DNA of 64,000 bases from assembly GCA_966250335.1 (NCBI GenBank), contig CBINGZ010000001.1:129010-193009 (forward strand), given 5' to 3'. The translations under genes and the position numbers were made by a program. The notes under the pieces are model-generated. The model was not told the origin of the DNA, did not search any database, and worked only from the letters and a program-made list of their open reading frames with translations. Numbering within the stretch: the first letter of the stretch is position 1; each line of letters starts with the position of its first letter. Below are positions 11,533 to 26,461 of the stretch, one piece after another. The stretch is from an uncultured bacterium (GTDB lineage: Bacteria > Bacteroidota > Ignavibacteria > OLB7).

Positions 11533-11666
11533 ACATCCCTCAAAAAAAGATGACGAAAACCTTCCGCGCCGGGAACTTCCCCCCCCGGGCGTTGGTTGTA
11601 TGTACTGAGATGAATGATGATGGTTGATTGAATGAACATTATGGTGATTGTGACGGAGAAACGATA

Positions 11667-11786
11667 ATGAGAAACCTTGTACGCGGCCTGATAGCAGGCT
11701 ACGGAGCAAAGAAGATTGGTGGTGGCTGTCTTGGAACGATAATTGTCTTCATAATTCTTTACTGGCTTCTTGGATATGTTTTCTAA
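11667..11786 (+). CDS. Small 39-aa hydrophobic ORF (MRNLVRGLIAGYGAKKIGGGCLGTIIVFIILYWLLGYVF) in AT-rich intergenic island
   Basis: ATG preceded by GGAG 10 nt upstream; single TM helix; lies in ~40% GC region; not in supplied ORF track (below length cutoff). Confidence 0.3.
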   Translation: MRNLVRGLIAGYGAKKIGGGCLGTIIVFIILYWLLGYVF

Positions 11787-11941
11787 TCCAGTGATGAGGA
11801 TGTCGAAGCGGGGTATAATCCAGGCAGAATATAGTATGACGCATGTGCTTCGAAGTGAAAGCACGAAGTATTGGAAGAATTGAATCGATAATTCAGACTT
11901 CTATTACGTAAAAAACGCTAACGATTCAACATTCGTATATA

Positions 11942-11970
11942 AACAAGGGGAGTGAGCAATCACTCCCCTT
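11942..11970. terminator. Perfect 11-bp stem hairpin AAGGGGAGTGA-gcaa-TCACTCCCCTT, likely bidirectional terminator (U-rich tract on minus-strand side)
   Basis: Seen directly; located between convergent Rieske gene/sORF (+) and SDR gene (-). Confidence 0.4.
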
Positions 11971-12147
11971 GGTCGTTCAGACAACTGCGGCACAGGACAC
12001 GACGGACCTTCAGCGAACAACCTGAAGACGTCCGGTACGGGACAAGGGAAACCCCCTCGACTTCGGATTACTCGGGCGAGGGGGTTTGCGCATCATATCG
12101 TGTCGGAGGAGTTACCCTCCGTCGTTCATGCCGGGAGTCGGAGGATA

Positions 12148-13053: not shown

Positions 13054-13196
13054 GAGATTGCTCGGAGCAGGATTATTGTAGTATGTTCGACGCCGGATGA
13101 AGAATCGCCCTCTGCTTACGCCTCAACCGCCGGCAGGGGCGGAAAATACGCTTGAACGGGAAACCCCATGCCGGAAACAAGAAGGAGGAGGTGGTC

Positions 13197-13685
13197 ATGT
13201 TGATCTACACCATCGGCCACTCCACGCGTACGCAGGATCAGTTGACTGCGCTGCTTCGCCTCTACGATATCCGAACACTGGTCGACATTCGTCGGGTTCC
13301 ATACTCGAGGCACAACCCCCAATTCAACCGCGAGGAGATGATGCGGACGATGCCGGAGGCGGGAATCCGCTACGAGCACCTGACCGAACTGGGAGGCGTC
13401 AAACCTTCCCAGGAGGTGATCGACCGCGCCCGCTCCTGCAGCGAACGCTCCCGCGGCTTCGCCGGATACATGCAGACCGAGACGTTCAAACAGGGCCTGC
13501 AGAGGGCGATCGACATGGCCCGTAACGAACAGATCGCCCTCATGTGCGCCGAGGCCGACCCATCGCACTGCCACCGGTTCTGGGTGGCCGATGCCCTGGC
13601 GGTGATTCCGGGTATCACGGTACAGCATATCGTGGCCGAGGGGGATGTACGGGAGCATCCGGCGAATTTGTTTACGTATCAGTGA
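13197..13685 (+). CDS. DUF488 family protein
   Basis: MLIYTIGHSTR...LVDIRRVPYSRHNPQF...GIRYEHLTELGG matches DUF488 consensus by memory; GGAGGAGG RBS 7 nt upstream of this ATG. Confidence 0.65.
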   Translation: MLIYTIGHSTRTQDQLTALLRLYDIRTLVDIRRVPYSRHNPQFNREEMMRTMPEAGIRYEHLTELGGVKPSQEVIDRARSCSERSRGFAGYMQTETFKQGLQRAIDMARNEQIALMCAEADPSHCHRFWVADALAVIPGITVQHIVAEGDVREHPANLFTYQ

Positions 13686-13838
13686 GGGGATGAGGGACAG
13701 GAAGGTGAGGGCGATTCCGTATCTTTTGCCGGGTTTGAGTGATGCAAGCTCGTCGTACCCTGCCTCAGCATCAACCAAAACTGCTAACTGTGTTTGAAGG
13801 GCATGTTGCCAGCCGCCTATCGATAGACTGGTATCTTC

Positions 13839-15134
13839 ATGAAGATCGTCAAGTTATCTGTAGACAACTATAAGTCGCTTAAGGGTTTTGAGATGAGCCC
13901 GGAGCAGCTTAGTGTGTTAGTAGGAGCAAATGCATCGGGGAAGAGCAACTTTGCGGATTGTCTCCATTTCCTATCAGAGGCATACCGATTAGGACTTGAG
14001 ATCGCAGTTGCTCGGAAGGGAGGGTATGACAACATTGTTTTTCGCGCGCACGGCAAACAAAAGGAACCAATACATATCGCTGTTACTGTCGAACTGGACC
14101 ATAGTGATACCGATTACTTCTCAGACCTTTGGGATAATTTCGCTGGAGTTCGTGTAGAACACAGTTTCTCCTTCGCGGCCTCAAAACAACTGATTCAATC
14201 CTCGATTCACATCCTAGATGAGGTGCTTACCATCAGCATTTCCGAGGCGGAAACGAAAGAAGAATTTCAGCACCTTGCAAGCATTGTGAGAAAAGGATCC
14301 GATATCCGAGTTGATATCTCAAACATTGCTCGGAGGAGCAAATTCCTTTCCGAACTTGAAATCCTAACGTACGTCTTTAAAGATTCCAGAGAAGTTCCAC
14401 GAACCGAACTACTCACCACTTATACTCGCAGTCTTCATCCTTTCATTTCTATATATGTCAGCACAATCTACCGTATCGGTGTATTCCAGCTCAACCCAAT
14501 GAGAACTCGGGAATCCGGTGTCACGGGGCCGGAATTGGAACTGGATCGCCATGGTGAGAACCTGCCAGCCGTTGTCAAAGGTCTCCAGGATCACTATCAT
14601 GAAGAATGGGAAGCGATAGAAGATGCTATGCGAGTGATTTTACCGGATCTTATGAATATCCATGTCGTTCAAGGCTCTCGAGGGGCGTTGGAATTATATT
14701 TTCAGGAATTTGGCTTTACACGTCCGTGGAACATCACTGAAGTTTCCGACGGAACAGTCCAGGCACTTGCGCTGTTGACCGCAGTCTACAGCCCGGTTTC
14801 TTCACCGCTTGTCATTGAAGAGCCTGAGAATTCCGTTCACCCGTGGATTGTGCGCAAAATCCTGGAGGCCTGCCGCGAGGCATCCCGTTACAAACAGATT
14901 GTCGTAACGACACATTCGCCTATTGTCATGAACCAGGCCCGCCCCGACGAGATCTGGGTGATATGGCGGGCGGAAGGTTTCTCACGGATCTCGCGCCTTG
15001 TGAGCCTCGATTCTGATTTTCTGAAGGGTTGGCAAGAAGGTGATTTCTCCGCATTCGATTTTATTGACAGCGGCATTGTTCGTGAGACCGTGCCACCATT
15101 TCCCTCGAATAAAAAATTATCGGAGGAAGAATGA
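13839..15134 (+). CDS. ABC-type/AAA_21-like ATPase (OLD/SMC-like) of a two-gene island
   Basis: Walker A GANASGKSN; Q/signature-like EVSDGTVQALALL; Walker B LVIEEPE; H-loop TTHSP; gene sits in ~45% GC island. Confidence 0.8.
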   Translation: MKIVKLSVDNYKSLKGFEMSPEQLSVLVGANASGKSNFADCLHFLSEAYRLGLEIAVARKGGYDNIVFRAHGKQKEPIHIAVTVELDHSDTDYFSDLWDNFAGVRVEHSFSFAASKQLIQSSIHILDEVLTISISEAETKEEFQHLASIVRKGSDIRVDISNIARRSKFLSELEILTYVFKDSREVPRTELLTTYTRSLHPFISIYVSTIYRIGVFQLNPMRTRESGVTGPELELDRHGENLPAVVKGLQDHYHEEWEAIEDAMRVILPDLMNIHVVQGSRGALELYFQEFGFTRPWNITEVSDGTVQALALLTAVYSPVSSPLVIEEPENSVHPWIVRKILEACREASRYKQIVVTTHSPIVMNQARPDEIWVIWRAEGFSRISRLVSLDSDFLKGWQEGDFSAFDFIDSGIVRETVPPFPSNKKLSEEE

Positions 15135-15751
15135 AAATCGGAATCATCGTTGATGGTGATGGGGAATTTCTATCTCTATCGAAATTGATTGATAAATTAG
15201 CAATCACCAACAAGGTTCTAGCCCCGATTAAAGCAGACATTCAGCCTAACGCCTCATTTCATCATATTGCGATGAAAACTGCCGTCGGCATCACCATTCT
15301 TCTAAGGAAGGAGGTCAATAGAATTATTGTTCTTATCGATCGTGAGCAAAGGCCAGAATGTCCAGGTGAGATTGCTGAAAAGATTCAAAAGAGAATCCAA
15401 GATAGCCATCTTAAGCATGGGAGCGTTGAGATTTTCGTCGTCCTTAAGGATCGGATGTTTGAGAACTGGCTGATAGCCGACCCTCATGCCTTCTCGAAGA
15501 TGCCCGCACGCTTCGAGCTTGAAGCAGGGTTAACGCGAGGGATTATCGGGAGAGCTGATAATCTTGATGCATTAACAATCTTAAAAAAGGCCGTGGTAAA
15601 AACGAAGTACAGCAAAACGCAGGACCCACCCAGAATACTATCCGTTGTTGACCCTCTAGAAATGGCCCGCAACTCGCGATCGTTCCGCCGATTTCTCCGA
15701 ATGCTCGACCATCCCGACTATCGCACCCGAAGCAAGACCGCAGCACCCTAA
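15131..15751 (+). CDS. DUF4276-like small protein (possible Toprim-like nuclease partner of the ATPase)
   Basis: 206 aa; start overlaps ATPase stop (ATGA); acidic motifs IIVDGDGE, IIVLIDRE, VLKDRMFENWLIADP; size and context match DUF4276 proteins that accompany AAA_21 ATPases (recalled, not searched). Confidence 0.5.
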   Translation: MKIGIIVDGDGEFLSLSKLIDKLAITNKVLAPIKADIQPNASFHHIAMKTAVGITILLRKEVNRIIVLIDREQRPECPGEIAEKIQKRIQDSHLKHGSVEIFVVLKDRMFENWLIADPHAFSKMPARFELEAGLTRGIIGRADNLDALTILKKAVVKTKYSKTQDPPRILSVVDPLEMARNSRSFRRFLRMLDHPDYRTRSKTAAP

Positions 15752-15768
15752 TGCTAGATACCCCTCTG

Positions 15769-16746
15769 CTACAGCCCCACCTTCGCCCCCGCACGCTCCA
15801 GCATATCCAACGCCTTCACATCCGTCGCCTGACGCGCCACCCATTCGTAGCCGCCGGCCAGTAATGCGTCATACTCCCCATCGCTCAGCCTGTCGATCCG
15901 GTTCAGCAGCTCATCGGCGCTGTTGTATGAGATGCAGTTGCCGGGACCGAGATCGTACGGGGGGCTGAGCGGAGGCCGCCTGTCGAGATCGCGGAAGCAG
16001 ATCACGGCGCCGTTGGCGGCTATTTCGTAGTGGCGCAGGCAGTCCCAGCCGCCGCGCCGCGCGGTGACCCCGAAACGGGAGGCGCGGAGATCGGCGTAGT
16101 AGCCGGCCTCCTCGGTGAACATGTAGGTCGTCGATCGCTCCCCCTGTACCCTGGGATGCGCCAGCAGCTCGGAGTCGACGATGTGCGAAGGGAAGGTCTG
16201 CCGTTTGTCGGCGCGGGTCACGCCGGGCGTAATCTTCTCCTTCGGGATCGCAAACGATATCGGCAGCACGTTGGCGTGCCGCGAACGCCGGTTGTAGTAG
16301 AAGGGAGGAATCAGCTTGTAGTTGTAGTAATATGACGCCTTGGGATGCAGCTCCCGCTTGAAATAGACGAAGTCGCGCGCAGCCAGCGGCAATTTGATGA
16401 AATCCTCACCGTCCAGAATGATCGTCTTCCGATAATCAAGACCCCCCCGATAGTAGCGGAAGAAGGGAAGCGTTCTGTAGTACGACCCGAAAATCACCCG
16501 GTCGTACCAGCCGCTCCGCAGCCGGTGCTCGATGTCGGTCCGGTCCACCGGAATATCGTCCAGCGTGCGCCAGAGGGTGAAGAGGTTGCCGTAAAGCTCC
16601 GTGGCGGGGCGCGCGGAGAACTCCCTGTACATCACATCCTTTTTCGGATAGTCGATGCAGTCGGCGCCGAAAAGGGAGCGGAGGCCGTGCAGATAGGCGT
16701 CCTCGAGGTTGTCGGGACCGGGGGATGTGAAGAAGAGGATCTTCAT
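15769..16746 (-). CDS. Hypothetical protein, possibly CgeB/glycosyltransferase-like
   Basis: Long clean ORF, normal GC; weak resemblance of C-terminal region (NSADELLNRIDRLSDGEYDALLAGGYEWV) to glycosyltransferase/CgeB-type proteins. Confidence 0.35.
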   Translation of the reverse strand: MKILFFTSPGPDNLEDAYLHGLRSLFGADCIDYPKKDVMYREFSARPATELYGNLFTLWRTLDDIPVDRTDIEHRLRSGWYDRVIFGSYYRTLPFFRYYRGGLDYRKTIILDGEDFIKLPLAARDFVYFKRELHPKASYYYNYKLIPPFYYNRRSRHANVLPISFAIPKEKITPGVTRADKRQTFPSHIVDSELLAHPRVQGERSTTYMFTEEAGYYADLRASRFGVTARRGGWDCLRHYEIAANGAVICFRDLDRRPPLSPPYDLGPGNCISYNSADELLNRIDRLSDGEYDALLAGGYEWVARQATDVKALDMLERAGAKVGL

Positions 16747-25960: not shown

Positions 25961-26461
25961 ATGGCAGAAGAGCAACAGGACGGAGTCCTCATTCGATTCG
26001 ACTCGGTCGATACACTCATGTTCTCGGCGCGGCAGTTGTTTGACAACACCGCCGCCCAGGGTGAGTCGATCGGATTCAATCTCAACATGAAGATGGGGAT
26101 GCTGGACGAGCCGCGAAGCATCGTCCCGATCATCATCGAAGTGACGGCCAACGAGCCGAACGTCGCCGAGCCGCTGGCGAAGATCGCGGCGCGCTCCAAC
26201 TTTCAGATCACCGGCATCGAGCGGTTCAAGAGCGACGAGGGATACAGCATCCCCGGCGAACTGCTGGAACTGCTGATCACGAACGCCTACGCCACGACCC
26301 GCGGCCTCCTTCTGGCCCGCGGCGCCGGAACGGTGGTGGAGACCCTGATCCTTCCGATCCTCAGCTCGGCCCAGCTCATGGGAATCTTCACCGGCAACCA
26401 GCAGGGAGGCGAAGCCCCCGCGCCGGCTCCTCCTCCGGAGATCCCGACCTACGAAATCTGA
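25961..26461 (+). CDS. Hypothetical protein
   Basis: ORF only; antisense 238-aa ORF judged shadow. Confidence 0.3.
   Translation: MAEEQQDGVLIRFDSVDTLMFSARQLFDNTAAQGESIGFNLNMKMGMLDEPRSIVPIIIEVTANEPNVAEPLAKIAARSNFQITGIERFKSDEGYSIPGELLELLITNAYATTRGLLLARGAGTVVETLILPILSSAQLMGIFTGNQQGGEAPAPAPPPEIPTYEI

Follow-up and report, generated by a model that had tools for sequence, protein, structure and literature searches.

HEC-01 (Hma-embedded candidate 01) consists of an ATP-binding cassette (ABC) ATPase and a TOPRIM protein, with a metal site in common with BpOLD (Payne et al., bioRxiv 10.1101/2024.01.29.577857). The system was found first inside Hma systems, and non-embedded copies were also counted, mostly apart from other defence systems (10.1101/2024.01.29.577857). 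When a HEC-01 from a cold seep was tried in E. coli B, it protected against at least one of the phages T7, T5 and T4 (10.1101/2024.09.26.614923). One study assigned DUF4276 and RloB alike to the Toprim superfamily and named Mad4 among the homologues of DUF4276 (PMC12065111). MADS Mad3-Mad4 and AbiL are listed among the systems that combine an ABC ATPase with TOPRIM (PMC11464382). MADS defence is impaired by deletion of mad3 or mad4, mad6-8 are mandatory in the authors' model, and mad5, a homologue of a restriction-modification (R-M) component in that model, can be deleted only when mad2 or mad3 is also deleted (10.1101/2023.03.30.534895). The dependence seen for mad5 points to a Mad3-dependent toxicity. 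PARIS AriB and P2 Old are tRNases that are released or opened by their ATPase (PMC11464382; 10.64898/2026.07.10.737580). Here, we analyze a two-gene island at positions 13686-15768 of a 64,000-nucleotide stretch of DNA (the window; contig CBINGZ010000001.1 of assembly GCA_966250335.1, positions 129,010 to 193,009, forward strand) from an uncultured bacterium of the Ignavibacteria lineage OLB7. With a probability that we put at roughly 0.7, the island is a horizontally acquired HEC-01-type cassette of ~2.07 kb that works as an OLD-like, ATPase-controlled Toprim nuclease on two polypeptides.

The initial annotation of the window, which was made from the letters alone, had described the island as a candidate split OLD-like defence module. 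As a description of the architecture this is fair. The novelty that it implied is not supported: pairs of an ATPase and a DUF4276 protein are already catalogued as HEC-01 (10.1101/2024.01.29.577857), and both the Toprim assignment of the family (PMC12065111) and the listing of Mad3-Mad4 (PMC11464382) are published. The window pair is a divergent member of this kind, which a routine PADLOC run would label.

A compositionally foreign pair of ATPase and DUF4276 genes

The island holds two co-oriented genes on the forward strand. Gene 1 (13839-15134) encodes a HEC-01A-type ABC ATPase of 431 amino acids that belongs to the SMC/Rad50/OLD clade and is without a long coiled coil, and gene 2 (15131-15751) encodes a HEC-01B-type DUF4276 protein of 206 amino acids, a predicted metal-dependent nuclease of the Toprim fold. 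The ATGA at 15131-15134 contains the stop of gene 1 and the start of gene 2, which therefore overlap by 4 nucleotides, and it follows a GGAGG (15122-15126) after a 4-nucleotide spacer, so that the junction at 15122-15134 has the layout of a translational-coupling site. On the left, the island is bounded by the end of a DUF488 gene at 13685, and on the right by the end of a convergent minus-strand gene for a 325-residue protein at 15769, which leaves a gap of 17 bp after the stop of gene 2. These coordinates of the overlap and of both flanking genes are exactly as first annotated.

The GC content of the island is 0.477, compared with 0.629 +/- 0.019 (minimum 0.572) in non-overlapping segments of the same length (z = -8.1), and no other kilobase of the 64-kb window approaches this dip. 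The initial annotation had described an abrupt fall from ~67% to ~45%; the dip itself is real, but the background is ~62-63% and the mean of the island is ~47-48%, with 300-bp minima of 41%. At third codon positions the GC content (GC3) is 0.488 in gene 1 and 0.483 in gene 2, in contrast to 0.74-0.87 in eight neighbouring genes, which bears out the earlier view of the pair as compositionally foreign. This strong GC3 deficit shows a cassette that is unadapted to the composition of its host and implies that it was transferred recently, from a donor with ~45-50% GC.

Both proteins fall into known families. Gene 1 was expected to belong to AAA_21 and AAA_15, and it matches both above their Pfam cut-offs (PF13304, 3.2e-31; PF13175, 5.2e-19). 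Its best match in PADLOC-DB is the HEC-01A model PDLC04178 (3.3e-56, 189 bits, residues 2-388), and ten HEC-01A models outscore the model of every other system, with lower scores for AriA (113 bits), AbiLi (106), mad3 (69), GajA (53) and Old (51). Among the NCBIfam equivalogs, it reaches 122.8 bits with MAD3 (cut-off 420) and 43.7 bits with PtuA (cut-off 500). For gene 2, DUF4276 or Toprim had been predicted: the protein matches DUF4276 (PF14103) at 1.1e-11 (45.8 bits, cut-off 30.2), and the models that it matches in PADLOC-DB are exclusively those of HEC-01, the best being the HEC-01B model PDLC04196 (3.7e-17, 61 bits, residues 1-192 of 206). The PADLOC comparison that the initial annotation had proposed hence recognises the pair as HEC-01A plus HEC-01B. 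Excluding the sequences themselves, the nearest database entries are 47% identical to gene 1 and 49% identical to gene 2.

All motifs quoted in the initial annotation are present, that is, GANASGKSN, SDGTVQALALL, LVIEEPE and TTHSP in gene 1 and IIVDGDGE (residues 5-12) in gene 2. Column conservation was taken from 45 homologues for the ATPase. In the Walker A motif or P-loop GANASGKSN (residues 29-37; 13923-13949), G29, N31, G34, K35 and N37 are invariant. The Q-loop region VFQLNP (14481-14498) has V215 and Q217 conserved in at least 90%, and the signature-like SDGTVQALALL (residues 303-313; 14745-14777) has S303, D304, G305 and T306 invariant. Walker B, LVIEEPE (residues 324-330; 14808-14828), is followed by a D-loop-like NS, with E328, E330, N331 and S332 invariant and E327 and P329 conserved in at least 90%. 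The H-loop TTHSP (residues 357-361; 14907-14921) has T357, H359 and S360 invariant. With all ATPase motifs on conserved columns, the ATP site is predicted to be competent. A hypervariable insert at residues ~81-200 (14079-14438), which is beta-rich and then helical, has a column conservation of 0.26-0.53 compared with 0.70-0.83 in the ATPase core, and we propose it as the surface that contacts a sensed molecule or a partner. In the structure model of gene 1, an ABC head with an SMC/Rad50/PtuA/AriA-like fold carries an insert that extends its beta-sheet; a sequence search of the PDB with gene 1 gave weak matches at the level of the P-loop and nothing beyond the generic ABC head.

For gene 2, the model is a three-layer alpha/beta fold of the Toprim/OLD type that resembles BpOLD (6NK8); a PDB sequence search with the gene 2 profile gave no match. 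Its conserved columns were taken from 51 homologues. The candidate catalytic glutamate of the Toprim fold, E12 (15164-15166), closes the IIVDGDGE motif at the end of strand 1 (residues 2-7, followed by a helix at residues 10-22) and is invariant in all 51. An acidic pair, D70-R-E72 (15338-15346), follows strand 3 (residues 64-70), with D70 invariant and E72 conserved in at least 90%. E12, after strand 1, stands where Toprim proteins have their conserved Glu, and D70-x-E72, after strand 3, would be a DxE variant at the place of the Toprim DxD. An acidic and aromatic cluster after strand 4, FENWL (15458-15472), has E111 and W113 invariant and N112 and L114 conserved in at least 90%. The best-conserved block of the protein (block conservation 0.77) is a basic helix near its C terminus, NSRSFRRFLR (residues 181-190; 15671-15700; helix at residues 183-191), in which S182, R183, S184 and R186 are invariant; we propose that this helix contacts nucleic acid or the ATPase. 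All 51 aligned homologues match DUF4276, and 16 of them also match Pfam RloB (best 1.3e-08), which is below detection in the window protein at E 0.05.

A gene 2 profile search of 1.84 billion cluster representatives returned 1,513 clusters at E <= 1e-3, 257 of which reach E <= 1e-30, and among the matches listed (n = 150) all are stand-alone proteins of ~190-236 amino acids. To look at the genomic setting, we used seven gene 2 homologues that lie on long contigs, from Bacteroidia, Geomonas oryzisoli, Actinomycetota and several metagenome-assembled genomes (MAGs). All seven loci have an ATPase gene directly upstream, adjacent and co-oriented, whose product is homologous to that of gene 1 over its full length (29-45% identity), although in one locus it is split, and most of the junctions are a 4-nucleotide overlap of the NTGA type or a near abutment. 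In 7/7 loci the GC content of the pair is lower than that of the flanks, by 0.05-0.20. Beyond the pair, the surroundings are mutually unrelated and often include transposases, an island of integrase, resolvase, IS21 and ArdC, a Phd antitoxin, a KAP NTPase or a DpnII-type restriction enzyme; Hma or MADS genes were found around none of the seven pairs. The gene 2 homologues are evenly conserved (40-44% identity to the window protein) and the ATPase is more variable. The ATPase and the DUF4276 protein are probably a functional unit, obligately paired across phyla in unrelated contexts.

Two of these loci deserve separate mention. In Geomonas oryzisoli (CP076723.1, 1543198-1559809), a pair of an ATPase and a DUF4276/RloB protein sits inside an obvious mobile element that also carries an IS21 transposase with IstB, an HNH protein, ArdC, a serine recombinase, RadC and a tyrosine integrase, a setting that suggests one of the ways in which such pairs are moved between genomes. 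The split ATPase belongs to locus L107 (2253-3555), in which the partner is present as two open reading frames (ORFs) of 281 and 111 amino acids just downstream of a DpnII/MboI-type restriction enzyme; either the copy is decaying, or the assembly, of 4x coverage, contains an error.

Related systems and competing explanations

Measured against the described systems, the window pair is closest to HEC-01. Both proteins have their best PADLOC matches there, the two genes follow each other in the same order and orientation as a two-gene unit, the predicted ABC ATPase with its beta-sheet-extending insert and the BpOLD-like Toprim partner are shared features, and the pair agrees with the PADLOC definition of HEC-01 in every point of sequence and architecture. 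It differs in that it is not embedded in an Hma system, which the PADLOC model does not require (no hma-like helicase, methylase or ATPase gene lies within ~13 kb), and stands alone between housekeeping genes, and in the low identity of its proteins to any other database sequence (at most 47% for gene 1 and 49% for gene 2). MADS of Pseudomonas aeruginosa has the same succession of an AAA_15/21 ABC ATPase (Mad3) and a DUF4276 protein (Mad4). However, gene 1 stays below the MAD3 equivalog cut-off (122.8 bits against 420), its PADLOC score for mad3 is 69 bits against 189 for HEC-01A, and none of the other mad genes, such as the methyltransferase or mad6-8, lies within ~13 kb of the pair. Membership of MADS was rejected on the cut-off and on the missing mad6-8.

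PARIS, also described as 'class 4 OLD', pairs the ABC ATPase AriA with AriB, a DUF4435 Toprim protein of ~300 amino acids, whereas the window effector is a DUF4276 protein of 206 amino acids without any match to DUF4435 or AriB even at E 0.1. Furthermore, relatives of gene 2 were not found on phages or satellites. We rejected PARIS membership for want of DUF4435, the AriA match (113 bits) being that of a generic AAA_21 profile and weaker than HEC-01A. In OLD classes 1-3 (P2 Old, Thermus and Burkholderia OLD, Gabija GajA and the retron Eco8 effector) ATPase and Toprim are fused in one polypeptide, whereas the window has two ORFs, each with a start and a stop codon of its own, and gene 1 matches the Old and GajA models weakly (51-53 bits). 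OLD class 2 or Gabija was rejected as no GajB-type UvrD/PcrA-like helicase is nearby, and OLD class 3 or a retron as there is no reverse transcriptase, no Rfam match and an unstructured leader. Septu (PtuA/PtuB) does not fit on either protein, with 43.7 bits for PtuA against a cut-off of 500 and a DUF4276 partner instead of HNH. Nor does AbiL (AbiLi/AbiLii), given that AbiLi (106 bits) scores well under HEC-01A and gene 2 has no AbiLii match. RloA/RloB pairs, which are linked to type I R-M, are approached by the RloB matches of 16/51 members of the DUF4276 subfamily, but the window protein itself has no such match at E 0.05 and no R-M genes adjoin it.

Several observations weigh against an OLD-like HEC-01 defence cassette in the window. 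In E. coli K-12, the HEC-01 representative of Payne et al. protected against none of the phages tried (10.1101/2024.01.29.577857), and the sole positive phage report (10.1101/2024.09.26.614923) is sparse in detail. Mad3-Mad4, the only homologues that have been dissected genetically, act inside an eight-gene, methylation-associated system, whereas the window pair is stand-alone. The acidic motif of gene 2 reads DxE where canonical Toprim has DxD; both residues are acidic. Relatives of gene 2 were not found in INPHARED phages, PLSDB plasmids or IMG/VR, and BFVD structures gave no significant match, unlike PARIS and Old, which ride prophages and satellites. Lastly, an empty site was not found: the relatives of the right flank in 185k reference genomes (best 65% identity) share no neighbours with the window.

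The pair could also be a selfish addiction module of the toxin-antitoxin (TA) type, in which the DUF4276 nuclease is a toxin restrained by the ATPase and its loss kills the cell without any benefit against phages. Translational coupling and tight stoichiometry would suit such a module, as would the sporadic distribution, the foreign composition and the frequent position beside transposases and TA genes; Pfam words AAA_21 as a 'putative AbiEii toxin, Type IV TA system', and one HEC-01 gave no phage protection. Many abortive-infection systems are themselves TA-like, so defence would still be compatible with these features. The combination of a conserved effector with an ATPase whose insert is hypervariable is what a diversifying sensor would show, and a pure addiction module has no need of such a sensor. 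Moreover, one HEC-01 did protect, and MADS defence depends on mad3 and mad4. On balance we regard addiction without defence as improbable. We give slightly less credence still to an orphaned effector sub-module of a larger system (MADS, Hma or type I R-M-like) that needs a methyltransferase or helicase partner and is silent or decaying here. The discovery of HEC-01 within Hma systems, the action of Mad3-Mad4 within MADS, where mad5 is deletable only with mad2 or mad3, the link of RloB-type relatives to type I R-M and the lack of partner genes within ~13 kb all speak for it. However, neither ORF is truncated, all residues that are invariant in the two families are retained, the score of 122.8 bits is far from the MAD3 cut-off of 420, and the pair stands alone, without Hma or MADS genes around it, in 7/7 homologous loci of the subfamily, in line with the report that PADLOC HEC-01 lies mostly away from other defence systems (10.1101/2024.01.29.577857).

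Least probable by a wide distance is a housekeeping pair for DNA repair or recombination, in which an SMC/Rad50/RecF-like ATPase and its nuclease partner would be analogous to SbcCD and not immune. Such a pair would not be expected to lie 0.35 below the host genes in GC3, to be missing from the neighbourhoods of the nearest available relatives of the host or to occur patchily across phyla beside mobile-element genes; neither a coiled coil nor a phosphoesterase of the Mre11/SbcD type is present, and the best profile matches are models of defence systems.

Leader, borders and neighbouring genes

The cassette is preceded by a leader of 153 nucleotides (13686-13838), a putative promoter region of intermediate composition (GC 0.49-0.56) across which the GC content drops stepwise from 0.65 to 0.45. 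It contains no consensus sigma-70 promoter, and the promoter and terminator scans were at chance level. The leader RNA is not unusual in structure and folds worse than shuffled controls (z +1.8), and an Rfam search (E up to 1) found no family in the leader or the locus apart from noise. No Shine-Dalgarno sequence precedes gene 1 at 13839 (upstream sequence …ctggtatcttcATG), whereas a strong one stands before the native DUF488 gene (aaggaggaggtggtcATG, 13180-13199) and gene 2 likewise has its GGAGG. The ATPase may be translated weakly or in a leaderless-like manner, and the pair could in this way be kept at a low level of expression.

One copy of a short repeated motif, GAGGGCGAT, lies in the leader at 13707-13715. 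This exact 9-mer occurs five times in the 64-kb window, and four of the copies fall within 612 bp around the DUF488 gene, at 13104 (-), 13502 (+), 13533 (-) and 13707 (+). The DUF488 gene lies between the arms of a perfect 11-bp inverted repeat, GAATCGCCCTC/GAGGGCGATTC (13102-13112 and 13707-13717), and a copy of the longer GCAGAGGGCGATC with 2 mismatches lies in the 17-bp gap at the right border of the island (15757-15769). With up to 2 mismatches, 16 matches to the 13-mer were observed compared with 5.5 +/- 2.2 expected. Motifs of this type could be operator sites, recombination sites, or the outcome of codon bias and chance. As an attachment (att) site, GAGGGCGAT was rejected: of the copies close to the two borders, the one on the right is weak. 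A search for repeats, direct or inverted, that abut the island on both sides gave nothing convincing, and no tRNA was found. The right border can be placed within 15737-15768 because the C terminus of gene 2 still fits the family consensus.

Upstream, within ~13 kb, the window encodes NHL and Kelch beta-propeller proteins with type IX secretion tails, a GNAT protein, a GH20 glycosidase, PGI, a Rieske oxygenase, an SDR protein and the DUF488 protein. Downstream, over the same distance, follow the 325-residue protein, a dicarboxylate symporter, a nitroreductase, endonuclease III, a type III polyketide synthase, a TonB receptor and an extracytoplasmic function (ECF) sigma factor. Among the substantial ORFs within ~13 kb on each side there is no integrase, transposase, methyltransferase, helicase, reverse transcriptase, R-M or known defence gene; the initial annotation had likewise seen no integrase or transposase next to the pair. 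Its description of the neighbours as unrelated housekeeping genes is largely right. The qualification concerns the DUF488 protein (13197-13685), which matches the PADLOC candidate components PDC-M45B (3.5e-36), PDC-M19A (7e-21) and PDC-M45C (9e-12), though DUF488 genes show no recurrent linkage to such pairs. As a third component of the cassette it was rejected, given that its GC3 is native, that it is missing from the 7 other pair loci and that none of 15 DUF488 loci contains a pair.

The exact proteins are confined to contigs of the same population. The best relatives of the right-flank gene are in Kapaibacterium/Chlorobiota MAGs; from these relatives and the type IX secretion tails, the host appears to belong to the Kapaibacteria/Chlorobiota/Ignavibacteria group. 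In JGI metagenomes, the DUF488 flank has relatives of 47% identity at most, too distant for an empty-site comparison. The 325-residue protein at the right border (15769-16746, minus strand) has no Pfam or PADLOC match and belongs to an unannotated, widespread family with 260 confirmed relatives at 35-65% identity in Kapaibacteria, Ignavibacteria, Bacteroidota, cyanobacteria, Solirubrobacteraceae and others.

Elsewhere in the window, a second low-GC stretch of 615 bp (11533-12147, GC 0.476) lies between the Rieske oxygenase and SDR genes. It includes a perfect hairpin with an 11-bp stem (11945-11970) and, at 11667-11786, an ORF for a very hydrophobic product of 39 amino acids (MRNLVRGLIAGYGAKKIGGGCLGTIIVFIILYWLLGYVF), which is called as a gene on a metagenome contig, has no Pfam match and could be a gene for a small membrane peptide or a toxin-like product. 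Next to the ECF sigma factor gene, a protein of 166 amino acids (25961-26461) without a Pfam match is weakly matched by PADLOC PDC-M64C (2.1e-07).

Proposed mechanism and significance

By analogy with OLD, Gabija, PARIS and MADS Mad3-Mad4, we infer the following course of action for the cassette, which may be active in its present host. The ATGA overlap would yield the two proteins in a fixed proportion, from which they would assemble into a complex, and within this complex the ATPase would hold the nuclease inactive. The hypervariable insert (residues ~81-200) may sense a protein or a nucleic-acid structure derived from an invader, which would be the trigger. Binding or hydrolysis of ATP at the site formed by Walker A, Q-loop, signature, Walker B and H-loop would then license or release the nuclease. 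Once free to act, the nuclease is predicted to cleave nucleic acid in a metal-dependent manner through E12, D70/E72, E111 and D143; the substrate could be phage or host DNA, or tRNA. Cleavage would halt phage replication either directly or through abortive infection. The pair would in this way probably work like an OLD/PARIS-type system, yet it belongs to the HEC-01/DUF4276 branch.

A more specific proposal, which we hold to be doubtful, is that stand-alone HEC-01 pairs with the DxE motif and the invariant NSRSFRRFLR helix form a distinct, self-sufficient abortive-infection system, in which the insert senses a phage factor directly and the effector cuts RNA or tRNA and not DNA. If this is true, the logic of PARIS would have been reached with a different effector family and without a methylation partner, and the cleanly bounded 2-kb cassette of the window would be a minimal example for the mechanism of HEC-01.

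For the OLD-like HEC-01 cassette as such, the window adds an intact and divergent pair, with less than 50% identity to anything known, from an uncultured Kapaibacteria/Chlorobiota-like bacterium. It is an unusually clean, minimal cassette of the defence type that carries no mobility gene and is set between convergent housekeeping genes. What remains new is the mechanism of HEC-01 together with the DxE motif and the invariant C-terminal basic helix of the subfamily. For these, the targets for mutagenesis are now mapped: K35 and the hypervariable insert in the ATPase, and E12, D70/E72, E111, D143 and the NSRSFRRFLR helix in the DUF4276 protein.

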